A stretch of 64,000 nucleotides of DNA from Candidatus Fervidifonticultor quintus (GCA_031459535.1 JAVKIJ010000006.1:1-64000); one strand, 5' to 3'. Counted from the stretch's first letter, positions 9,303 to 61,491 are shown. Numbers and translations are program-made. Notes: generated by a model from the letters alone, not told the origin.

Positions 9303-10655
9303 TCATTCCGTCCGGTAGTAGCGCCGCTTCGGGTCCTGCGGTCCCGTGCCGACCTCACGCACAAGTCCGCCGGCGACCAAGCGCGCAAGCCGCGTGCGCG
9401 TGGCGCGCGGCGTGAGGCCGATCGCCTTAGCGATCTCGCTCGTGAGCAGCCCCTTGCCGGCCCCCAAGGCATCCACGATGGCCCGGTCGGTCTCGTCGAG
9501 GATCGATGGCCCGACGCGCGCGGTCGACAGGGTCACCCGGAAGCGCGTGCCGATCTCCTCGAAGACTGGAGGGGCGAGCCCCGCTTCGCGGCAGGCCCGC
9601 GTCATGCGCTGCACGCCGCTGCCCCACTGCTCGATCAGCCCGAGGAGGTGGAACACTCGCCCGATGACGCGATTGCGAAGCTTCGAGACCCCGCGTGGGA
9701 GGTCCTCGATGGTAAGTCCGAAGGGCAGGAGCCCGGGGTTCTCGACCTCCAGCCGGTCGTCGAAGATCGCGATGCGAAGCGGGCCGCCACGCTGCGCGTA
9801 GTCGGCGTGCGCGACCGCGTTGATGACGGCCTCTCGTACCGCCACGGGAGGCAGGGTCCAGCGCTCGCGGCGACGCACAGCGCCGATCTCGGCCCCGTGG
9901 AGCCCATGCTTCTGCACAAAGGCGATAGCTTCTTCGATTGCGCGCACGGGATGGGACCGGATCTCGATGCGGTCGTCGATGCGGCTTCGGTCGGTGCCCC
10001 GGAACCGTCCGGCCTGGATCCAGGCGTCGGGGAAGTGGCACTCGCGATCTCGGCCGAAAAGGAGGACCCCGCCTACGGTGGGCACCTTGCGCCCCTGGTG
10101 GTGCGTCACGAGCCGGAGCGTTTCGAGATCGCGGCGACGGATCTCGCGGACGGGCGCAAACGACTCGGAAGCGGCTCGGAAGTCCAGCGCTTCCGGGTCG
10201 AGATCTGGCATCGGCTGCTCGTCGAAGGTCTCGCCGCGCGCGAAGCGGAGAAGCCCCTCGACGAGCTCCCGGTCGGCTCGCCGGTTGGTGGAGCCCACGC
10301 GCACATAGACGCCGCTGTCGGATCCCTCGCGTTTGAGGTAGTGCGGGCGGCTCGGGCTCGGATGGACCCGCACCGCCACGACCTGCGTGCGCCGCCAGGG
10401 CAGGATCTCGATCTCCGGCACGAGCCGAGGGGTCACCTGATCGCTGATCAGATTGGCCAGGCGCTCCTCCAAGTCGAGAGGTTCCGTGACGCCGCGCACG
10501 TGGCCAGTCCTGTTCTCGACGCCGACGAGGAGCGTCCCGCCCGCGGTGTTCGCGAAGGCCACGATCGTCCTCAGCGCGCCGTCCGGCGCGGACAGTTCGC
10601 GCTTGAACTCGAGGGTCTTGCCCTCCGGCCGCTTGAGCAACTCGACGAGGTCCAT
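9303..10655 (-). CDS. Schlafen/AlbA_2 domain + HATPase_c_4-like + C-terminal wHTH protein (cassette 3)
   Basis: EGKTLEFKRE..IVAFANTAGGTLLVGV (AlbA_2), REAVINAVAHADY..LEVENPG..RNRVI..IEQWGSG, and a terminal HTH. Confidence 0.88.
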   Translation of the reverse strand: MDLVELLKRPEGKTLEFKRELSAPDGALRTIVAFANTAGGTLLVGVENRTGHVRGVTEPLDLEERLANLISDQVTPRLVPEIEILPWRRTQVVAVRVHPSPSRPHYLKREGSDSGVYVRVGSTNRRADRELVEGLLRFARGETFDEQPMPDLDPEALDFRAASESFAPVREIRRRDLETLRLVTHHQGRKVPTVGGVLLFGRDRECHFPDAWIQAGRFRGTDRSRIDDRIEIRSHPVRAIEEAIAFVQKHGLHGAEIGAVRRRERWTLPPVAVREAVINAVAHADYAQRGGPLRIAIFDDRLEVENPGLLPFGLTIEDLPRGVSKLRNRVIGRVFHLLGLIEQWGSGVQRMTRACREAGLAPPVFEEIGTRFRVTLSTARVGPSILDETDRAIVDALGAGKGLLTSEIAKAIGLTPRATRTRLARLVAGGLVREVGTGPQDPKRRYYRTE

Positions 10656-10722
10656 CCTGCTCGGAAGTCTACTTGGAAGGGCCGGGCAGCGTTAAGCTTC
10701 CGAGCGCGAAGCCTTTCGGGGC

Positions 10723-10814
10723 GCCCAACGGCAAGCATGAGCGGCGGGGCGGGTATTACAAGCACGCCCGAATTAGCAGGGCGGTAGCCCCGTCCGCTCC
10801 ACGCAGTGTTGGGC
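10723..10814 (-). other. attC site closing cassette 2
   Basis: Minus strand GCCCAAC actgc GTGGAGCGGACGGGGC...GCCCCGCCGCTCATG cttgcc GTTGGGC: R''/R' cores and an imperfect palindrome with extra bases on the first arm. Confidence 0.85.
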
Positions 10815-10899
10815 GGCCTCTTCGAGATCGGCGCGACTCATCGTCAGCCTGTTGAGATCAAGCTGCTCCGCCTGTTTTGACCTTGCCCACTGCAAGCGG

Positions 10900-11106
10900 T
10901 TATTGCTTGCGGGTGGAAAGCCCGAACGGCAGATACGTTGGGCAAAAGCCAACGAGGCTGGTGACGACGAAGGCGACGGCCAGAATGCCCAGAATGATAG
11001 CCGCCAGCCCAGAAAGATTGCCGGTGAAGTACAAAACAGCGATCACGGCGGCAATCACCAGCCGGATAATGCGGTCTAGCGTTCCCATGTTCTTGTTGAG
11101 TTTCAT
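10900..11106 (-). CDS. DUF2892 (YgaP-like) small membrane protein (cassette 2)
   Basis: NMGTLDRIIR...GFCPTYLPFGLST signature with an AAGGAG RBS. Confidence 0.9.
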   Translation of the reverse strand: MKLNKNMGTLDRIIRLVIAAVIAVLYFTGNLSGLAAIILGILAVAFVVTSLVGFCPTYLPFGLSTRKQ

Positions 11107-11129
11107 TGATTCATCTCCTTCTTGCTTAT

Positions 11130-11234
11130 TTATCGGATGAGGGATTGAATGAGCAGGGCCAACCCAGTGACCAGCCCAATACAGATCAGGCAGACCAGAA
11201 GCAGTTTCAGTAGCTTGCGTCTCGTATCATCCAT
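11130..11234 (-). CDS. 34-aa single-TM peptide (cassette 2)
   Basis: Manual translation MDDTRRKLLKLLLVCLICIGLVTGLALLIQSLIR*, with an AGAGGA RBS. Below the ORF-track cutoff. Confidence 0.55.
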   Translation of the reverse strand: MDDTRRKLLKLLLVCLICIGLVTGLALLIQSLIR

Positions 11235-11277
11235 AGTCCTCTCTTTCTTTTGCACCGTTCAACAGACAAGACGGACC

Positions 11278-11344
11278 GCCCAACGCCACCATTAACCCGG
11301 AGCGCGCGTTTTGGCGCGCGATCGGGTCGAACGGTCTGTTCGGC
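11278..11344 (-). other. attC site closing cassette 1
   Basis: Minus strand GCCGAAC agacc GTTCGACC cga tcGCGCGC caaaa CGCGCGC tccg GGTTAAT ggtggc GTTGGGC: R''-L''-L'-R' layout with an extra C in L''. Confidence 0.88.
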
Positions 11345-11368
11345 AACAGCTAGATTGGCCGCTCATGG

Positions 11369-11755
11369 TTACAACAACGTATGGGCATCGCGGGCGAGGA
11401 GCCAACGGCCGTCGGGCTGTTTGCGGTAGATCGTGATTCGATGACCGGCGAGCTGCCTCGCTTCCCCACCAGCGTGCGGGGTTATAGACAAGGTGTCACG
11501 GCTCCGTGTGTAGGCGACGTCGCCGACGACCACAATCTCCTCCAATTCGCTGATGCATCGGATTCGAACCTGTTGGTGAGCGGTCGAGAAGTTAGCAGAA
11601 AGTTGATCTCGGCCGAACGGCGCTTGGCCCGGACTGAGGAACACGACATCGTCCGTCATCAAGGTAAGCAAGCGGACCAGATTGCCGGCATTGACGGCGT
11701 CGATCCAGGTCGAATGAGCTTCCCGGATTTCTCGTTCATCAGGCCTCATCTGCAA
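11369..11755 (-). CDS. DUF4440/SnoaL NTF2-like protein (cassette 1)
   Basis: WIDAVNAG..LMTDDVVFL..GDVAY..IYRKQPDGRWLLARD. The true start may be ATG 11749. Confidence 0.88.
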   Translation of the reverse strand: MQMRPDEREIREAHSTWIDAVNAGNLVRLLTLMTDDVVFLSPGQAPFGRDQLSANFSTAHQQVRIRCISELEEIVVVGDVAYTRSRDTLSITPHAGGEARQLAGHRITIYRKQPDGRWLLARDAHTLL

Positions 11756-11763
11756 TCTCCGCT

Positions 11764-11830
11764 GCCGAACTCGTGTTTAGGCTGACCAGCCTAATCTAAC
11801 ACCCCACCATCGTCAGCCTAACACCCCGAG
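11764..11830 (-). other. attI-like site
   Basis: Minus strand GGTCAGCCTAAACACGAG/TTCGGC resembles attI1 GCCCTAAAACAAAG/TTRRRY. It is preceded by direct repeats GGGGTGTTAG x2 and TTAGGCTG x2. Confidence 0.7.
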
Positions 11831-11953
11831 GCCAGAGGCTTCCTCGGGCGCAACTACCCGCCCAGTACTAGTCTTCGTCAACCTGCGCGCCCCCTTATCG
11901 CGCATTATACTGCGATGCCGGTCAGTCTAACATCTTCAAGTGTGCCTGAGCCC

Positions 11954-12270
11954 TTACGGTAGCGGCCCGTCCATGAGATACTTGACAACTCGCCCACCCC
12001 GGTGCAGCACGCGAGTGTAGACGATTGGGGCTAGGGTACTTCCAAGGTGGGGGAGTTCGCCAGCGAAGCCCGACCAACCCCCGGGCTAGGTCCTGCTCGC
12101 GCTGGCAGCCGCCCGCGCTCCAGGTACGCGGCCGGCACCGCCTGCACGGCCGCTGGGAGCATCGTCACCCGGTCTTGGCCTCCTCTTGTCGTCGCGGACG
12201 GTGATCTCACGGCACTGGAAGACCGCGTCCCTGATTCACGGGCGCAGCGCCGGCGGCAGCCGGTAGTTGC
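11954..12270 (-). pseudogene. intI: Integron integrase remnant (frameshifts and deletions)
   Basis: Fragments across frames: REITVRDDK / GGQDRVTMLP / EQDLARG / GRASLAN / KYP / IVYTRVLHRGGRVV..MD. Confidence 0.8.
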
Positions 12271-12305
12271 GGCGGAGGTGGATACCTTGAGCCCCCTCAT
12301 CCCCG

Positions 12306-13076
12306 GTGCTACACTTCCTGGCGGCCATGGACCCGGTGATCGTTCAGATCGGCCCCGTCGCCATCCGCTGGTACGGCGTCCTGCTGGCTGCCACCGTCGG
12401 CGTCAGCCTGCTGGTCGCCTACCGCGTGGGACCCCGGTTTGGTGTCTCACCCGACGTCCTGGATCGCACGGCGATCACCTTCGTCATTGTGGCCCTGATC
12501 GGCGCCAGGGTGGGCTACATCCTCTCCCACCCGGCGGAATTCTCCACTTTGGTTGATCTGGTGCGCATCGACCGCGGCGGCCTCGCCTCGCACGGTGCTA
12601 TCGCCACCGGTCTGCTGTACCTGGCCTGGGCCGGGCGCCGCTACCGCCTCTCGACATGGACGCTGGCCGACGTGGCCAGCTGGGCCATTCCCATCGGGAA
12701 CGTCTTCGTGCGGATCGGCAATTTCATCAACGGCGAGTTGTACGGCGATCCCACGGCGCTGCCGTGGGGCGTACGGTTCCCCACCGCGCCCGATGCGCCG
12801 CGTCACCCGCTGCAGCTCTACGAGGCGCTGCTCGCCGCCGCGATCCTGCTGTGCGCCAGGAGAGTCGCCGCGCGCCCGCGCTTCGCCGGCCAGGTGTTCT
12901 GGACGATCATGGTGCCCACGTCGGTTTGCCGGGTGCTCTTCGATGCGCTGCGCAGCGATGCGCGCGCGCTGGGGCTCTTGACGCTGGGCCAGCTCCCCGC
13001 GCTGGCCCTGGCGATCTGGGGCGTCTGGGCGCTGCGGCGCGGGGCCGCGTCCAGTGCCCGCACCGCGCCCGGCTAG
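12306..13076 (+). CDS. lgt: Prolipoprotein diacylglyceryl transferase
   Basis: IGPVAIRWYG, GARVGY, RIGNFINGELYG and RHPLQLYE motifs. Confidence 0.93.
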   Translation: MLHFLAAMDPVIVQIGPVAIRWYGVLLAATVGVSLLVAYRVGPRFGVSPDVLDRTAITFVIVALIGARVGYILSHPAEFSTLVDLVRIDRGGLASHGAIATGLLYLAWAGRRYRLSTWTLADVASWAIPIGNVFVRIGNFINGELYGDPTALPWGVRFPTAPDAPRHPLQLYEALLAAAILLCARRVAARPRFAGQVFWTIMVPTSVCRVLFDALRSDARALGLLTLGQLPALALAIWGVWALRRGAASSARTAPG

Positions 13077-29110: not shown

Positions 29111-32100
29111 GTGGCCGAACGAATGGTTCGTGTCGGTGACCGTGTTGCCGTCCGCGACCGACCCTGGCGCGTTGAGGCGGCCAGGGACTTAGGTGGGGGC
29201 AAAACCCTCCTGACGCTCCTTCCTGCCCGTGGCGATGGACTGTCACCGCTGTCCGTTGTCGCCCCACCCGAACGCGTCGTCCCCCTACCCCCGGAAGAGC
29301 TTCGCTTCGACCCCGCCGGGATCGGCCCCGTCGTCCCGTGGCTCCGCGCCCACCAGGCCCTCGCGCTCAAGGCAATCGAAGACGGGCTAACGGCGATTCA
29401 AGAGGGAGCGCTGAGCGGGGCCCGCTTTGGCCGGGTTACCCTCGAGGCCTATCAGATCGCCCCCGTCCTGCGAATCCTGGCCAAGCCGAAGCCACGGCTA
29501 CTCATCGCCGACGATGTTGGCCTTGGCAAGACCATTGAGGCTGGCCTGTGCCTGCTCGAGCTCATGTCCAGACACCGCGCCGATCGGGTCCTCATCGTCG
29601 TTCCTCCTGGGCTCATCGTGCAGTGGCAGGAAGAGATGCTCGATCGCTTCGGCCTCAAGTTCATGGTGATCGAGAACGCCGCCGGACTCGCCCGCGAGCG
29701 GACCGAGTTGCCGGCGGGCGTGAGTCCCTGGGACCTGCCTCAGGTCCGGATCATCACCTCCATGGACTATCTCAAGAAGGACGAGGTCCGACGCCGTGCG
29801 CTGGCCAGGCCCTGGGACGTGGTGATCGTGGACGAGGCCCATGCCCTGGCCGAATCCGGATCACCCCAGAACCCCTACCGGACCCGCCGCACACGCCTGG
29901 GCGAGGACCTCCGCGACCGTTCCCGGGGCCTGCTCCTGCTCACGGCGACCCCGCACAATGGATATTCACACTCCTTCCGGTCGCTGATTGAACTCGTAGA
30001 GCCGACTGCTGCCACCCTCACCGGGCCCCAGACGCGGGACCGGATCGAGCGGGCCATGATCCGGCGCATGAAGCGTCAGATCGTCCGTCCCGACCCGCAG
30101 GATGGCTGGATTCCTGCGTTCCCAAAGCGCACCGTCACGCCCATTCCAGTGATTGTGTCGGCCCGGGAGGCTGAGCTCTTCCGGCTGATTTCTGCCTACT
30201 GCAGTCGGACGGCCAGCGAAGCCAGGGGCGAAGAAGACGAGGAACTGATCTCCTTCGCCATGCAGATCATCAAGAAGCGGGCCATCTCCAGCCGACTTGC
30301 CCTGGTCCGCACGCTGGAGAACCGGCTGCGAGCCCTGAAGAGAGAGGAGGAGCGCGAAGAGAAACCCGAACGGTCCGAACTGCGCGACTATCAGGCCGGG
30401 TTGCCCCTCTCGGACCAGCAGGCGGAACGCATCAGCCGAAGGATCCTCCGCTCCGCCATCCCCAAGGATGAGCGGCGGCGGAAGGCCGAGGTCCGCAAGA
30501 TCACCGAGATCCAACGGCTCCTGGCGAAACTTCCTCCTGCCGATCCCAAGGTGATGGCACTCATCGCGCACCTGCGGGCCGTGCTCGCGGAGGATCCATC
30601 GGCCAAGGTCATCGTCTTCACCGAATACCTCGACACCCTGGAGGCGATCAGGAGTGCGCTTGAGAAAGCAGGCCCGCCCCTCGCCGCCGCCCACGTGGAA
30701 CTCCGCGGCGGGCTCACGATGCGCCAGCGCCAGCAGCGCCAGCAGCGCTTTGAAGCGCCCGATGTGCGCGTGCTGCTGGCGACTGACGCGGCCAGCGAGG
30801 GGCTCAACCTCCAGCGGGCGTGTCACCGCCTGGTCCACTTCGAGCTGCCGTGGAACCCCAACCGCCTGGAGCAGCGCAACGGACGGATCGACCGGTACGG
30901 ACAGGCGCACCCTCCCGACATTCGCTACCTGTACTACCCCGATTCCCCGGAGGATGACGTCCTGGCCCGGCTGGTGAAGAAGATCGAGGAAATGGCCGAG
31001 GCCCGCGTCTCGACCCCCGACGTGCTGGGCGTGGCGCTCGGTCTGGACCTGGAGCGCCGTCTGGTCCAGGTGGACCCCGGAGACCCTGCGGCCGCGGGCC
31101 GCCTGCTCCGTGACTTCGAAGACCGCACTGGCGAGTTCGTGGGCGAGGTTCAGCCCCTACTGCTCCCTTCGGGCGATCCCCGTGACGAGATCCGCCGCGG
31201 TCTGCGGGTCCTGACGCAGGCGGTCCCGCTGCTGGGAGATGACCTGGAACTCGAGCAGTTCCTGCTCGATATCCTGGGCCCGACTGCCGTTCGCCAGAGC
31301 GGTGAAGAGGGCGTCTTTCGCATTGAGGTGCCCCGGGTCTTCCGAGGGCCCGGCGTCGCAGAGCGTTACGAGCGGGCCACAGTCCGCCGGTCCATTGCTG
31401 CGCGCACCCGACCCACGGAAGTGGAATACCTGACACCACTGCATCCTCTCGTTCAGGCCATTGCCGCCGAGGCGCGGCGGCGGTTCATCCAGGTCTATCC
31501 CGACGACCGCGGCCTGCCCCCCAGGCGCCTGGCGGCCCGGAGAATTCCCGCCGTCGAGAGGGCTGGCATTCTCTTCACGTTCTACGGAACCATACAGGGG
31601 CGCGAGGGTGTGATTGAGGAAGCGATCCTCCCGGTCCGTGTGGACCTGAATGGTGCCGTCACCGGCGATCTGGAGACCGACAGCCGCATCCTGCGTGACC
31701 GCAGTCGCCCCGGCGAGGTGTCCGCCGAGTCGCTGGCCCCGTACGGAGAACGCTTCGACAATCTGCTGCGCGCTGCCCGCACGGAGGCCGCCCGGCGGCT
31801 GGCCGCGCGCGCCGAACAGATCCGCACGCACCGGCGCGACCTGGCGGAACGCCTTCGGGTCGACGCCGAAGCCTACCACGCCGACCGGTTGAGGGAGCTG
31901 GAGGAGGAAGAGATCCGCGCCCGCGGGCTCATCAAGGACACCGGCCAGGTCCTGCTCCGCATCGCCGAGGAGCAAGCCCGGTACAGCATCGACGCCAGGC
32001 GGGCGGCGGTGGAGGCGCACCTCAAAGCCCGCCTCGAGGAGATCGAGGCCTTTGCGCAGGTGGATGAGCCCGAGCCTCCTCAGCCGGTGGGCGCCCTCTT

Positions 32101-38235: not shown

Positions 38236-41200
38236 TCACTGGTTGAGGTCCTCTCTGAGCCGGGCTCTTTCGTCCTCGCGTAGCGCCTCCCTCCAGTAAC
38301 CATCTGCAATACGGCGTAACAAGGCCGCGGTGCGCGGCCAGCGGTCGGAGGCGACCGTGGCATGACCTTGGTACCGCTCTGCATGTTTTCGCTCCTGTGC
38401 GCCTCCCTCGTAGGGATCCTTAACGATAGTCCCCCGGCTGTTATACACGCCGATCTCGATGCCGCGCTCGAGGTCTGGACTGGCTACTTCCTCAACGACG
38501 TCGCACACTGCCGGGTGTGGCCATCCGCCGTCGGGGCCGTGCGGTGAGCCGCTCAGCATCTGCCCGATCATCTCGTCACCTATGACCGCGCGGCCCCGTG
38601 CCTGAAGGAGCTCACGTGCCCGCCGGACCCATTCCTTGAGTCGGTCGCGGTCAACGGCGCCGTCTTCAGAAATCCCAGGAACAGTTCGCGAGGAGCTAAG
38701 GAGTTCGTAGCCGCGCTGCGCTTGGTCACGCTCATGGTCGGATACTTCCTTAGGTTCCTCGCCGGCAGCCCGGAACACGGCGCTGACGACCTCGACGAAG
38801 AAATCAGGGTTTCGCGCCAGCTCTCGGTGGAGGAGTTTTGGCGTGCGCCTGTTCCTAAGAAGAGGCAGGAAAGCCCACTCCAGCCTCGCAATCCACCCCT
38901 CCTCGACATCACCAGAGCTCGCAAGGCGGTCGAGAAGTTCGCCTACTTCATATCCAAACGAACTGTCCGGCCGGTCAGTGGGTGTTGATGTCTGTAGAAC
39001 ACTCTCCAGCGCCTCGGCCGCCAGAGAGGCAGGCGTCACCTCGCGATGGGCTAGAAGCTTGATCGCCGCAAACGGGCGGTCGTGCTTCAGGAAATTTCGC
39101 ACGGCCTGTGCAGCGTGAGTGTTGTTGATGCCGTAAGGCGAGACCAGGCGCCAATAGCAACTCTCGATCTCTTGCCCCAGGGTCGCGGCGAGATCCCAGG
39201 TCTCGGGGTCAGTTGGCATGCAGACAAGCATCTCGGCTCGCTGTGCAGGTGTCCAGCCTTGTCCGATTCCCTTGAGCTTCGCCGTGGCCCATTCCCGACC
39301 GCGGCTCGCAATGCGGCCGATGGCAAACCCCCGAGCAAACTGAGCACGGGAAACGTCGTTCGCAGCCAGATGTTCGGAGAGAAGGCCATCCTCTTCGACC
39401 TCGGCGAGTCCACTTCGTCCCAGGGTCACGCCTAGTTCGCCAGGGACTTCTACGGCGCCCACAATTGCCATGATTTCAGCGAGTCCGCCTTTGTTGTAGA
39501 GGGTGCGGACTGCTTCGAGGCGTGCGTGGGCTACGGCCTGCTCATGCGCAGCCCAATTCGCCTCGAGACCTTCGGGTAGGTCGGGCGAGTGACTGAAGAG
39601 CCAGCCATAGCGCGCCGTAGGCTCAGCAGGCTCCCAGCGCTCCATGATCGCAGCCAGGGGTTCTAGACGTACCTCGGGGAGCGCCCAATCCGCGTCGGGA
39701 AATGAGCGGTGACGGGCCACCAACTTGCGCAGACCATCCCAGATCCTCGACCGGTCCTCCGGACGTATGCCCTCGGGGTCGAGAGACCGCAGGCGATCCA
39801 CAGCGGCCTCGTGCGTGGCAGGTGGCAGACTGGGAAGAGCTGCGATGAGATCCTCCCAGCGACTACCACTCTCTCCGACATCCTCAAGCAGTCTTGCGGC
39901 TATCTCCTGGACGCCCTTGCGGAACTCAGCATGAGTGACCTGCTCTGGCTCGTCGGGGCGCCATTCACGCCACTGGGGCTTTGCCGTGGGATGCCCTACG
40001 TCGTGGGTCCTGGGGAGCAGCTGCATCATGAGAGTCCACGCAACCTCCGGCTCCCGATCCCGTAACGAATCGAGGACACTCAGCCTCTGCTCAAGGGTAG
40101 CCGCAGTCTGCGGTAGCCAAAGGAGGAAGATGGCGCGCAGGCTGGCTTGGGGACGATTCGCCAGTCTGCCGCCGGGATCCAACCGAGCAAGGGTGGCGAG
40201 CAGACGCGCGACGTATCCCAGGTACTGCGGGTTCCATGCGAGCGCCTCAAGTGCCCAAAGGAGTCCCGTGTGCGGCGAGGAGGCGAAGAGTCCATCGTCT
40301 CTGTCCGTGAAGACGTTCAGAAGGACAGGTTGGTCACCCGCGAGGCCTCTGTCGACCGCTTCAAGGAAAGCGTCTGGCGCAGCCTCGGCGAGAAGAGGAA
40401 GGACTGGCGAGAGAGAGGCCCAGATCCGCCAATCGGCGTTTGCACGCGCGAGAAGCCCGCGGACAATCAGCATCGCAAAATCGCGGACTGAACCACCGGA
40501 GCCGATCGCGACTTGTTCTCCCCTGGCTCCCATGATCGCAAGCGATCCTGCAAAGCCCTCCCGGATCAGGTCCGACCAACGGTGAGCATGGCCGAGGACG
40601 TTGGCCATCCACCGCTGTTCTACAGGAACGTCGAATCGGGGATCTGGGGTGCCGAGCACTTCCAGCGCAACCCGCTGGAAACGCTCCAAGTCGTTACGTG
40701 TGAGATAGCGGGCAAGCAGCGGCCAGGCATCTTCCCTTGAAACAAGATACCATGCGTCGCCGAATCGCCGGACCGGCGCGTCGGGCTCGTTCGCCCAACG
40801 CCCCAGAACCGTGACGACTTCATCGTACGAAGCTCCAGAAAGAGCAGCAATCGCCTCCTGGTCGCCTTCCGTCTTCTTGTCGTTCCAGGCGCCCGCGAGC
40901 AGTGCGGGCAGCAATGAGGAGCCATGCTCAGCTCGGGCCCAGACCGGTTGCTGTGCCTCAGGACTCACTGCCAGTTTCCTCCGGAAGGCAGTCAAACTTC
41001 TGCGGGCGAGCGCAGCGAGGTCACGCGCCCGTTCCGCGGGTAGCCCTGCAGCAACCAGAGCCGTCTCGACCTGATCCCGTGAGAGCGGAGGAACTGTGAC
41101 GGTATTCTGGTGGGCGCTGTCCCCGCGACCGAGAGGGATGAGGACTCGGTGACCGGCGCGAACGGCGTGTCCTACCGCAGTAGTGCTATCAAAGTCCCTC

Positions 41201-41994
41201 ACGAGGATCAACGGATCTGCACCTGCGGCCACTTGGTGCCATGCTCCTTCGCTTCTCACGACGACCGCTCTTGAGAGGTAAGCACGCTGCTCGTCCTCAG
41301 GGAGCATCTTGACCGCGGCCGCGAAGATTGCGAGGGCTTCCTCACGAGTTTCAGCCTGCAAAGCCAGCGCGCCTGACGGCGCACGTAGCCAGTCATGGAT
41401 ACGGCTGACGGCCTCACCACGTCCCGCCAAGACAAGAGCGGGAGTAGCCGCTGGCAGCGTCGTGGCTGCCCAATCTTCCCAGAAACCACCGAGGTCGCAG
41501 GAATCCAGTGGGCGCTTTCCGAGCAAGGTCGAGATCCAGAGATAAACGGCTGGTGCTTGCACGAGCCAAGCGGCGAGGTCATCGGCGTCGTAGGCACGGA
41601 CGTCGCGCCAGACGTGTTCGGCACGTCGTTCACCAGCCCACTGATCCTTCCCGGCCCATCGTCTAGGTGTCACGAATACGAACGTGCTGCGTGCAGGATC
41701 GAGGCCGCTGGGGGCCGCCGTGCGCCTCTCGTAGTCTTCCTGCGCCTTTCGCCTGACATCACGACTCGTTCCTAGTTCCCACCCCGAGATGCCGCCCGGG
41801 ACGAACACGTTGCCTTGCTCAGCCTCGACAATACCGTCCCACCCGCCGAGCTGGATTCCCTCTCCTGAGGGGAAGCTCGCCCGCGAGATCCGTGGGCTCG
41901 TCGCGATAACCAAACGCCGCACAAGCTCTGGAAGGACCTCCTGAGAGCCCCGGCGGTCCGCCCAGCGCTCAAGGTCAGTGGCGTTCACTAACAT
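38236..41994 (-). CDS. 1252-aa protein: N-terminal PD-(D/E)xK-like nuclease domain, possible degenerate NTPase-like region, long helical C-terminus
   Basis: GGWDG...GWELGT..K..DY..R and FVFVTPRRW pattern; intact long ORF with a GGAG RBS. Function inferred only. Confidence 0.75.
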   Translation of the reverse strand: MLVNATDLERWADRRGSQEVLPELVRRLVIATSPRISRASFPSGEGIQLGGWDGIVEAEQGNVFVPGGISGWELGTSRDVRRKAQEDYERRTAAPSGLDPARSTFVFVTPRRWAGKDQWAGERRAEHVWRDVRAYDADDLAAWLVQAPAVYLWISTLLGKRPLDSCDLGGFWEDWAATTLPAATPALVLAGRGEAVSRIHDWLRAPSGALALQAETREEALAIFAAAVKMLPEDEQRAYLSRAVVVRSEGAWHQVAAGADPLILVRDFDSTTAVGHAVRAGHRVLIPLGRGDSAHQNTVTVPPLSRDQVETALVAAGLPAERARDLAALARRSLTAFRRKLAVSPEAQQPVWARAEHGSSLLPALLAGAWNDKKTEGDQEAIAALSGASYDEVVTVLGRWANEPDAPVRRFGDAWYLVSREDAWPLLARYLTRNDLERFQRVALEVLGTPDPRFDVPVEQRWMANVLGHAHRWSDLIREGFAGSLAIMGARGEQVAIGSGGSVRDFAMLIVRGLLARANADWRIWASLSPVLPLLAEAAPDAFLEAVDRGLAGDQPVLLNVFTDRDDGLFASSPHTGLLWALEALAWNPQYLGYVARLLATLARLDPGGRLANRPQASLRAIFLLWLPQTAATLEQRLSVLDSLRDREPEVAWTLMMQLLPRTHDVGHPTAKPQWREWRPDEPEQVTHAEFRKGVQEIAARLLEDVGESGSRWEDLIAALPSLPPATHEAAVDRLRSLDPEGIRPEDRSRIWDGLRKLVARHRSFPDADWALPEVRLEPLAAIMERWEPAEPTARYGWLFSHSPDLPEGLEANWAAHEQAVAHARLEAVRTLYNKGGLAEIMAIVGAVEVPGELGVTLGRSGLAEVEEDGLLSEHLAANDVSRAQFARGFAIGRIASRGREWATAKLKGIGQGWTPAQRAEMLVCMPTDPETWDLAATLGQEIESCYWRLVSPYGINNTHAAQAVRNFLKHDRPFAAIKLLAHREVTPASLAAEALESVLQTSTPTDRPDSSFGYEVGELLDRLASSGDVEEGWIARLEWAFLPLLRNRRTPKLLHRELARNPDFFVEVVSAVFRAAGEEPKEVSDHERDQAQRGYELLSSSRTVPGISEDGAVDRDRLKEWVRRARELLQARGRAVIGDEMIGQMLSGSPHGPDGGWPHPAVCDVVEEVASPDLERGIEIGVYNSRGTIVKDPYEGGAQERKHAERYQGHATVASDRWPRTAALLRRIADGYWREALREDERARLREDLNQ

Positions 41995-59973: not shown

Positions 59974-61491
59974 ATGCACCCACAATACGCCTCGATAGAC
60001 GGCTCTCCGTCAGAGCGCCAACGCCACATCTATCTCCTCAGCCCCAGGCTCCTTCCCCCTGAGGTCATTGCCGTGGCCTTCGCGAAGACCTCGCGCAGCC
60101 CCAGGCCGTTCCACGAGATCGCCGCAGAGCTCACCGAGGCCACCTCCAGCGAGTTCCACGAGAAGTGGGTCGTGGGGTACGGGCACGCCTCGGTGGCCGA
60201 GCACGCGGTGCTGCACCTGGCCGTGGAGAACGTCTCGCGGCTGGCGATCGAGAGCCTGGAGAGCAACCGGCTGGCCTCCTACACCGAGAAGTCCACGCGC
60301 TACCAGATCTTCGACACGTTCTACGTGCCGCCGGCGATTGCCGCCTCGCGGCACGCCGACCGGTACGTGGCGACCTGCCAGCACCTGTTCGAGACCTACC
60401 GGGCCAGTCTGGAGCCGGTGCGGCGGGTCATCGAGGCGCAGCACCCCAGGCGGGACGACGAGCCGGAACGGGCGTATACGGGCCGCATCCGGTCCAAGTA
60501 CGTGGACGTCTGCCGCTTCCTTCTGCCCTGCGCCACCGTCGCCAACGTGGGCATGACGGTCAACGCCCGCGCGCTCGAGCACGCGCTCACCAAGATGCTC
60601 TCCCACCCGCTCGAAGAGGTCCGGGCCGTGGGCGCCGAGGTGAAACGGGTGGCCCAAACCGAGGTGCCCACGCTGGTCAAGTACGCCGCGCCGAACCGCT
60701 ACATGACCGAGACCGCCTCCGCGCTGGAAGCTGCCGCGCGCACCGCAGCGGCCCAAGACAGCGACGCGGCCGGTGCCGCCAGCGAGACGCCTGGGGCCGG
60801 CGTGCGACTCGTTCAGTACGACCGCGACGCCGAACTGCGCGTGGTGGCCGCCTGCCTGTACCGCTACGGGGCCATGGCCTACCACGAGGCTTGGAGGCGG
60901 GCCAGTGCCCTCGGTCCGTCGGGGCGGCTGGCTGTGATCGCGGCGGCGCTGGAGCGGCTGGACCGATTCGACACGCCGCTACGGGAACTGGAGCACACGA
61001 GCTACACCTTTGACATCGTCTGCGACCAGGGCGCCTACTTCGACTTGAAGCGTCACCGGATGATGACGCAGAGCCCTCAGGCACCGACGGTAGACCTCGG
61101 CTACGCCGTGCCCCGCGCGATCGACGACGCGGGGCTGGGCCGGCGGTTTCGGGAAACGGTGGACCGGGCCACCGAGGCCTACCGGGTCATCGCGCGCGAC
61201 CTGCCCCACGAAGCCGGCTACCTGATGACCAATGCCCACAACCGCCGCTTCTTGGCCACGATGAACCTCCGCGAGCTCTACAGCATGGTGCCGCTGCGGG
61301 CCCGCGAGGCCGGCCACTTCTCGTACCGCCGGGTGGCGCTGCAGATCTACGAAGCGGTGCGCGCCGTTCACCCCGGGCTGGTCGCGCACGTGAGATTCGG
61401 GTACCAGCCGCCGTCAGCGGCGGCACTGGAGGCGCAGTTCTTCTCCGAGGTGGCCCGCGGCCTGGAGCCGATTCCCACGCTGACCACCTGA
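59974..61491 (+). CDS. thyX: FAD-dependent thymidylate synthase family, tandem Thy1 domains
   Basis: GYGHASVAEH..EKSTRY in domain 1; RELEH..LKRHR..NLREL in domain 2. Confidence 0.8.
   Translation: MHPQYASIDGSPSERQRHIYLLSPRLLPPEVIAVAFAKTSRSPRPFHEIAAELTEATSSEFHEKWVVGYGHASVAEHAVLHLAVENVSRLAIESLESNRLASYTEKSTRYQIFDTFYVPPAIAASRHADRYVATCQHLFETYRASLEPVRRVIEAQHPRRDDEPERAYTGRIRSKYVDVCRFLLPCATVANVGMTVNARALEHALTKMLSHPLEEVRAVGAEVKRVAQTEVPTLVKYAAPNRYMTETASALEAAARTAAAQDSDAAGAASETPGAGVRLVQYDRDAELRVVAACLYRYGAMAYHEAWRRASALGPSGRLAVIAAALERLDRFDTPLRELEHTSYTFDIVCDQGAYFDLKRHRMMTQSPQAPTVDLGYAVPRAIDDAGLGRRFRETVDRATEAYRVIARDLPHEAGYLMTNAHNRRFLATMNLRELYSMVPLRAREAGHFSYRRVALQIYEAVRAVHPGLVAHVRFGYQPPSAAALEAQFFSEVARGLEPIPTLTT

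Follow-up and report, generated by a model that had tools for sequence, protein, structure and literature searches.

An integrase-less two-cassette array behind an attI-like junction, probably an integron remnant, in the chromosome of a probable member of the Armatimonadota

Clusters of attC sites lacking an integron integrase (CALIN) form a category of their own in IntegronFinder, and the passages of its published account that deal with them (PMC4889954) give a clustering distance of 4 kb, with 252 of 279 clusters retained when the search was re-run at 10 kb. The same passages list loss of the integrase gene intI, rearrangement, and insertion at secondary sites as possible origins, and place intI pseudogenes near 15 of the 279 CALIN, most of which have no recognisable one (PMC4889954). 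The site at which class 1 cassettes are recruited, attI1, is described in the relevant part of another account as a simple site, made of two inverse core-like domains at the crossover, joined to two upstream direct-repeat binding domains, the latter being absent from many other attI classes (PMC3146285). Here we analyse a stretch of 64,000 nucleotides (nt) from Candidatus Fervidifonticultor quintus (JAVKIJ010000006.1, positions 1–64000; hereafter the window), in which an array on the minus strand, at 11827–10723, consists of an attI-like site followed by two gene cassettes, with one attC site closing each. We consider it quite probable that this two-cassette array without an integrase, a CALIN situated in an intergenic stretch of the chromosome of a probable member of the Armatimonadota, between lgt and a Schlafen/AlbA_2-type regulator gene, is what is left of a once complete integron. 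As such it is an integron remnant of a known kind in a little-documented host group, and it calls for no new mechanism.

A preliminary description of this DNA, made from the sequence, had spoken of a hidden integron array. Each of the elements that it named was found where it had been placed. The part of that claim that stands is the presence of two cassettes, with their attC sites, behind an attI-like site; the part that does not is the implied integron, as the window holds no integrase and the locus is therefore a CALIN and not a complete integron. Both attC sites belong to the minus strand and start 530 nt apart, well within 4 kb, and nowhere in the window does an intI gene stand beside attI and cassettes. 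In its small size, its dissimilar attC sites (67 and 92 nt), its non-resistance cassettes and the want of a recognisable intI pseudogene, the array resembles other CALIN. It differs from them in having retained an attI-type junction and a leader ahead of cassette 1, and in its probable Armatimonadota host. That phylum goes unmentioned in the available portions of two IntegronFinder accounts (PMC4889954, PMC9024848), the string "Armatimonad" occurring 0 times in PMC9024848, whose supplementary tables may list cases; a full-text literature search for integron together with Armatimonadetes or Armatimonadota returned, judging by titles and abstracts, no paper about integrons in this group. Integrase-less clusters are thought to serve as cassette reservoirs and also to be relics left by decaying integrons. 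What this locus adds is an attI-type junction preserved in a phylum scarcely represented in integron surveys, and with it a concrete case in which to study the loss of integrons and the question whether cassettes, once orphaned, can still be mobilised.

Set beside the class 1 platform, as found in In2 of R100, the junction shows the same elements in the same orientation, with two direct GTTA-type repeats leading to an inverted core and then to G/TT. The direct repeats are 22 nt apart here and 19 nt apart in R100, the distance from the direct repeat DR1 to the crossover is 30 nt as against 32, and the geometry of the attC sites is the same. In contrast to the class 1 platform, no intI occupies the position at which intI1 starts in R100, 139 nt from the crossover, and the locus is without significant overall sequence similarity to attI1 at its junction, without a 3' conserved segment and without resistance cassettes. 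In integrons of the Treponema type, intI is oriented as the cassettes are. At the present locus, weak recombinase-like pieces are likewise found upstream of the junction and on the cassette strand, but they have no statistical support. A further comparison is offered by attG insertions, which, in the portion of the preprint that treats them (bioRxiv 10.1101/2022.09.11.507474), likewise concern chromosomal cassettes distant from an integrase; these are single cassettes at arbitrary sites, whereas here two tandem cassettes stand behind an attI-like, multi-site junction in foreign DNA.

The attC sites were assessed with covariance models. A search of positions 10400–12400 against Rfam gave six matches at E <= 10, every one far under its gathering score, and since none was significant we built attC models of our own from real sites. 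These were taken from 13 class 1 integron plasmids, R100 among them, on which 12 attC sites were delimited by eye; a MAFFT alignment of the 12 sites was dropped as a basis for the models because their 3' arms were misaligned. Model R1 was built on five sites of 60 nt whose structure was written out by hand, R2 on seven sites of greater variety, aligned by means of R1, and R3 on 19 rows. The consensus of attC cores is RYYYAAC for R'' and GTTRRRY for R'. In the Alcaligenes reference plasmid, an IS110-family element (coding sequence 1279–2322) separates the start of the smr attC from a 60-nt match at 1159–1218 (regions 1159–1218 and 2322–2629); the first bases of this match do not fit R'', and it is still one of the seven rows of R2.

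With filters off, the best match of R1 in the window was attC1, over the full model length, at 25.7 bits and a rough E of 3.1e-5. This lies in the range of 20–27 bits that R1 gave on the real dfrA12, blaVIM-4 and dfrA27 sites; the sensitivity of R1 was such that 4 of the 12 hand-defined real sites were missed. The broader models gave higher scores, again with approximate E-values: R2 matched attC1 over its full length at 28.3 bits (E 8e-6) and attC2 at 37.2 bits (E 1.4e-8) with all pairs standard, and R3 matched attC1, also over the full model length, at 30.3 bits (E 4.4e-6) and attC2 at 36.7 bits (E 6.4e-8). The next-best match in the window reached 17.3 bits with R2 and 13.4 bits with R3. 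Control DNA, 1.36 Mb of unrelated sequence made up of 80 loci bearing Lgt, yielded one match of 15.4 bits with R2 and one partial match of 21.8 bits with R3. On the 13 integron loci all 25 matches of R2 fell on the cassette strand, and R2 recovered 8 of 9 hand-defined sites outside its training set at 30–69 bits, missing dfrA1. The preliminary description had named a lack of attC covariance hits as grounds for refutation; R1, R2 and R3 match the proposed sites at full length and on the cassette strand, with the exception of R1 on attC2. By these models, attC1 and attC2 resemble attC sites more closely than chance would allow.

The third-best match of the attC models in the window is a GC-rich palindrome at 30722–30781 on the minus strand, inside a DrmD-like gene (17.3 and 13.4 bits); it is without AAC/GTT cores and was taken as a false positive.

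The details of the two sites agree with the scores. The cores of attC1 are GCCGAAC (R'', 11344–11338) and GTTGGGC (R', 11284–11278), and those of attC2 are GCCCAAC (R'', 10814–10808), which fits the consensus, and GTTGGGC (R', 10729–10723). Both sites share one geometry in the model alignments, with a 7-bp R box, a spacer of 4–5 nt, the L box, a variable loop, a 6-nt spacer and R', and in each the L box has paired segments of 3, 6 and 5 bp, in that order, with one bulged base between successive segments. On the top strand the bulged bases are C and A in attC1 and G and A in attC2, corresponding on the bottom (plus) strand to G and T and to C and T, respectively; they sit on the R''/L'' arm, as expected of attC bottom strands. 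Hairpins with extrahelical bases, the absence of which was to speak against the sites, are thus found as two single-base bulges per site at the positions of the model, the R box of attC1 having to be forced. The bottom strand of attC2 forms the whole hairpin, bulges included, in an unconstrained DNA fold (-25.3 kcal/mol for 92 nt), and the surrounding 111 nt fold with z = -3.46. As it stands in the array, attC1 has an R' that is chimeric with the following cassette, which leaves one mismatch in its R box; the start of cassette 1 itself would give attC1 a perfect 7-bp R box.

Independently of the models, the two cassettes have self-consistent boundaries. Cassette 1 starts with TTCGGC after G11770, and its own attC opens with GCCGAAC at 11344, giving a complementary run of 8 when counted from the G; cassette 2 starts with TTGGGCGG after G11284, and its own attC opens with GCCCAAC at 10814, with CCG before it, giving a run of 9. 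All four variable R-box positions are complementary in both cassettes, as they are in 12 of 15 known cassettes when class 1 arrays are put to the same test. The R'' of cassette 1 complements its upstream junction at 4/4 positions and its downstream junction at 3/4, and a better match upstream than downstream is what insertion of circular cassettes predicts. Cassette 2 is uninformative in this respect (both junctions give 4/4), because all three junctions of the GTTGGGC type are alike. Both boundary claims of the preliminary description were therefore reproduced, and the boundary complementarity, shared with the known cassettes, supports the origin that it proposed, by recombination of circular cassettes at G/TT.

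The first junction has an architecture of its own. An exact 10-nt direct repeat at 11827–11818 and 11805–11796 bears out the upstream direct repeats already described for this site. An exact 10-nt inverted repeat (11821–11812 and 11786–11777) means that the accompanying statement that the site is not palindromic does not wholly hold. GTTA-type cores lie in the direct repeats at 11822–11816 and 11800–11794, 22 nt from start to start, and are followed by an inverted core at 11782–11775, 4 nt ahead of the GTT, and by the crossover core GTTCGGC at 11770–11764, so placed that recombination would have taken place between G11770 and T11769. Direct and inverted 10-nt repeats occur together in 2 of 6,393 sampled 70-nt segments of the window, each overlapping the attI-like site, and in 27 of 135,422 segments of the controls. 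A partly post hoc rule derived from attI1, which calls for two direct GTTA motifs 15–30 nt apart and 21–66 nt upstream, together with TAAAC or TAAAAC at most 16 nt from the GTT, selects G11770 alone among the 1,136 GTT sites of the window, and 4 sites among 39,685 in the controls. Applied to the class 1 loci, the same rule picks a single site in each (8/8), which coincides with the attI1 crossover or adjoins it. The architecture of the first junction thus exceeds chance. At this junction the attC models gave 9–11 bits, on the opposite strand, and we therefore do not regard it as an attC. We conclude that an attI1-type architecture is present and that detectable sequence homology to attI1 is absent.

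The DNA that carries the junction and the cassettes, an insert of about 1.2 kb, is compositionally foreign. GC content is 57.4% both in the cassettes (10723–11770) and in the leader ahead of them (11771–11960), against 68.7% in the adjoining 11961–12327 and 67.3% in the window as a whole. At third codon positions it is 0.67 in the open reading frame (ORF) of cassette 1 and 0.63 and 0.71 in those of cassette 2, compared with 0.86–0.92 in five host genes, and host genes have an overall GC content of 67–70%; the earlier impression that the cassettes are richer in AT than their flanks was thus correct. The rest of the window is ordinary chromosome, with ligA, a thrC-like gene, panB and the nuo operon. 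The NuoD protein encoded there is 85–89% identical to proteins named by NCBI as products of Armatimonadota metagenome-assembled genomes, and on this basis the host probably belongs to the Armatimonadota.

No ORF among the 104 of at least 170 amino acids (aa) in the 64 kb matches a recombinase family at E <= 1e-5, and tblastn of IntI1 against the window found nothing better than E 0.093. In a protein search with IntI1 the matches listed were 120 proteins at no less than 74% identity, and tblastn against plasmids gave at least 5,000 IntI1 records; no broad IntI profile resulted.

We propose the following sequence of events for this locus. An integron integrase would have inserted the cassettes by recombining the folded bottom strand of their attC sites with the attI-like site, at G11770/T11769, and if each cassette was inserted at that site, cassette 1 would be the more recent arrival. 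The integrase gene may later have been deleted, or it may be located elsewhere in the genome. Transcription of the cassettes, if there is any, would start from the low-GC leader of about 190 nt with its TATAAT or reach them by read-through, and an integrase acting in trans could still excise them.

It is conceivable, if improbable, that the platform is still alive, the attI-like site, leader and cassettes forming an intact module of the attI1 four-site type that is served in trans by an integrase encoded elsewhere. With such a split integron, the range of hosts in which integrons work, and likewise the attI1-type architecture, would reach well outside the Proteobacteria. Slightly less probable still, in our estimation, is that there never was an integron platform, an integrase in trans having put the cassettes at an ordinary secondary site, of the attG type, so that the repeats at the first junction would be host or chance sequence. 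Cassette insertion outside att sites has been reported in the part of the attG preprint bearing on it (bioRxiv 10.1101/2022.09.11.507474), and secondary-site insertion is among the origins listed in the CALIN passages (PMC4889954). It would also fit that neither an integrase nor a supported remnant of one lies nearby and that overall similarity to attI1 is not significant. However, low-GC foreign DNA runs about 190 nt past the first cassette boundary, that very stretch holds the 10-nt direct and inverted repeats, a combination rare in window and controls alike, and the attI1-derived rule (1/1,136 in the window, 4/39,685 in controls) picks the first junction. With both an attI-type junction and a foreign leader preserved, insertion at a secondary site of the genome is less favoured than loss of intI or a split platform.

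Whether intI has left a trace is a separate matter. First by eye and then by tblastn, three collinear weak matches to the IntI1 of R100 were noticed at 12235–11957 on the minus strand, corresponding to residues 155–169 at about 12235–12190, residues 171–196 at 12187–12110 (E 0.013, pairwise) and residues 310–332, the catalytic tyrosine region, at 12025–11957, the last terminating in a stop codon. Taken at face value they would make the locus an inverted-type integron in which a decayed intI survives as a pseudogene in the orientation of the cassettes. We regard this as very unlikely. The pieces have no match in Pfam, NCBIfam or PDB even at E <= 10, a word-indexed search aimed at longer relatives came up empty, and an exhaustive run of phmmer with the 43-aa piece against 1.84 billion representatives yielded only an 873-aa tandem-repeat ORF, which is not a recombinase. 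Chains of weak chance matches reach 75–100 bits whether the window is taken as it is, reversed or shuffled (30 shuffles), as against about 54 bits for the IntI1-like chain, and the pieces would span less than a quarter of an integrase, mostly in DNA of host-like GC, the segment lying mainly in the host-like spacer with its end extending into the low-GC leader. An integrase remnant at 12235–11957 was accordingly rejected as unsupported. The notion, finally, that attC1 and attC2 look like attC by chance and are GC-rich hairpins of some unrelated kind (terminators or genomic repeats, for instance) can be given next to no credence. High-GC genomes are rich in imperfect palindromes, the models did catch one at 30781–30722 with 13–17 bits, and the z-score of the attC1 fold is modest, but the two sites score 11–20 bits above the best other match in the window and the controls are nearly empty. 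Their AAC/GTT cores, spacer lengths and bulge positions agree with the model, both lie on the same strand and each right behind an ORF set, and three further features, namely complementarity at the boundaries, foreign composition and the attI-type junction, do not depend on the models.

Several observations weigh against our reading of the locus as an integron remnant. The attC models are self-built and not those of IntegronFinder, have 5, 7 and 19 rows, and derive from clinical class 1 attC sites only, and their shortened calibration makes the E-values rough. R1 gave attC2 only a partial match of 10.4 bits. One position of GCCGAAC, the R'' of attC1, does not conform to RYYYAAC, and when attC1 is folded freely, local hairpins (-19.2 kcal/mol) beat the form closed by the R box (-17.7 kcal/mol); its fold has a z of -2.0, 8 of 200 shuffles fold equally well, and top and bottom strands fold about equally. 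The attI rule is partly post hoc because TAAAC was admitted beside TAAAAC after the site had been seen. Of the resemblance to attI1 put forward in the preliminary description, the architecture, as judged by the repeats and the rule, held up and overall sequence similarity did not: in a global alignment that is crude and has free end gaps, 394 of 1,135 other GTT-anchored segments score as high or higher, which places the similarity at background. A consensus scan for a sigma-70-type promoter with 16–18 nt spacing found 0 sites in 10500–12400. The 80 Lgt-bearing loci, obtained by a contig scan with Lgt and showing 30–39% identity, included no close relative with which the locus could be compared, and on the low-coordinate side of the array the window shows just 10.7 kb.

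The features of the locus are collected in the table. Both cassettes are compact and look promoterless, and all their ORFs point one way.

Table. Features of the cassette array and its immediate neighbours, in window coordinates
Feature	Position	Strand	Basis or remark
lgt	ATG at 12327	+	Pfam LGT 4.6e-53
Spacer, host-like GC 68.7%, 366 nt	11961–12326		no family-matching ORF
Low-GC leader, 190 nt, 57.4% GC	11771–11960	-	contains attI-like site and TATAAT
attI-like site	11764–11827	-	exact repeats and attI1-derived rule
Cassette 1, 486 nt	11284–11769	-	ends in attC1
Cassette 1 ribosome-binding site GGAG	11760–11757	-	read from sequence
Cassette 1 ORF, 126 aa	11749–11372, stop 11371–11369	-	SnoaL-like / DUF4440 / SgcJ-EcaC family
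attC1, 67 nt	11278–11344	-	covariance models R1, R2, R3
Cassette 2, 555 nt	10729–11283	-	ends in attC2
Cassette 2 small ORF, 34 aa, hydrophobic	11234–11133	-	41 aa if GTG 11255 is the start
Cassette 2 AAGGAG site	11120–11115	-	read from sequence
Cassette 2 YgaP-like transmembrane ORF, 68 aa	11106–10903	-	Pfam YgaP-like_TM 3.4e-20
attC2, 92 nt	10723–10814	-	covariance models R2, R3; array end
Schlafen/AlbA_2, HATPase_c_4 and winged helix-turn-helix (wHTH) protein, 450 aa	9303–10655	-	Pfam; just downstream of array

Small proteins such as DUF4440/SgcJ-EcaC and YgaP-like ones are typical content of environmental cassettes. The protein of cassette 1 matches DUF4440 (4.3e-16) and SnoaL_2 (2.6e-10) in Pfam and TIGR02246 (1.2e-16) in NCBIfam, the 34-aa ORF of cassette 2 has no Pfam family, and neither cassette carries a recognisable resistance or virulence function. 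Shine-Dalgarno-like sites lie 7–8 nt before the starts of the cassette 1 ORF and the YgaP-like ORF, and the purine-rich stretch before the 34-aa ORF stops merely 2 nt short of its ATG. When plasmid DNA was searched with the whole locus, two Rhizobium matches were obtained at 72% identity, both confined to the ORF of cassette 1, whose protein is at most 45% identical to the products of plasmid genes (Ralstonia, Rhizobium).

The leader is a candidate promoter region for the cassettes. The TATAAT that had been pointed out on its minus strand, as a candidate -10 element of the cassette promoter Pc, is present at 11909–11904 and is one of two copies in the window when both strands are counted; the nearest -35-like hexamer, identified by eye, is 15 nt off.

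Some further repeats and matches were noted in and around the array. Twelve nucleotides, AGGCTGACGATG on the minus strand, are repeated exactly: one copy, at 11819–11808, falls in the outer of the two direct repeats of the attI-like site, and the other, at 10850–10839, falls within cassette 2 in the interval between the YgaP-like ORF and attC2; chance may account for this. An inverted repeat of 27 nt, 74% complementary, pairs 10904–10930, at the end of the YgaP-like ORF, with 10711–10737, just past attC2. The 43-aa translation of 11957–12085 (minus strand) matches the 873-aa tandem-repeat ORF eight times (E 2e-12, 43% identity), which looks like a chance match amplified by the repeats. Downstream of the array, 68 nt separate the final base of attC2 (10723) from the start of the next gene (10655); this Schlafen/AlbA_2-type gene (9303–10655) is of host-like composition and has weak PADLOC matches, to Argonaute-associated models (3.5e-11).

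Elsewhere in the window, a large defence island extends over 29105–56173, with PADLOC matches to DrmD (8e-134) and DrmMI (3e-113) of DISARM. Further PADLOC matches there are a GajB-like UvrD helicase, an RmrA-like M78 peptidase, a HamB-like helicase, PDC-S68 (4e-258) and a DruE-like helicase of 1,712 aa (7e-135). An ORF of 1,252 aa at 38239–41994 on the minus strand has no Pfam or PADLOC family. On the plus strand, at 59974–61491, a ThyX-family ORF of 505 aa contains two Thy1 stretches, amounting to about twice the 191-position Thy1 profile.

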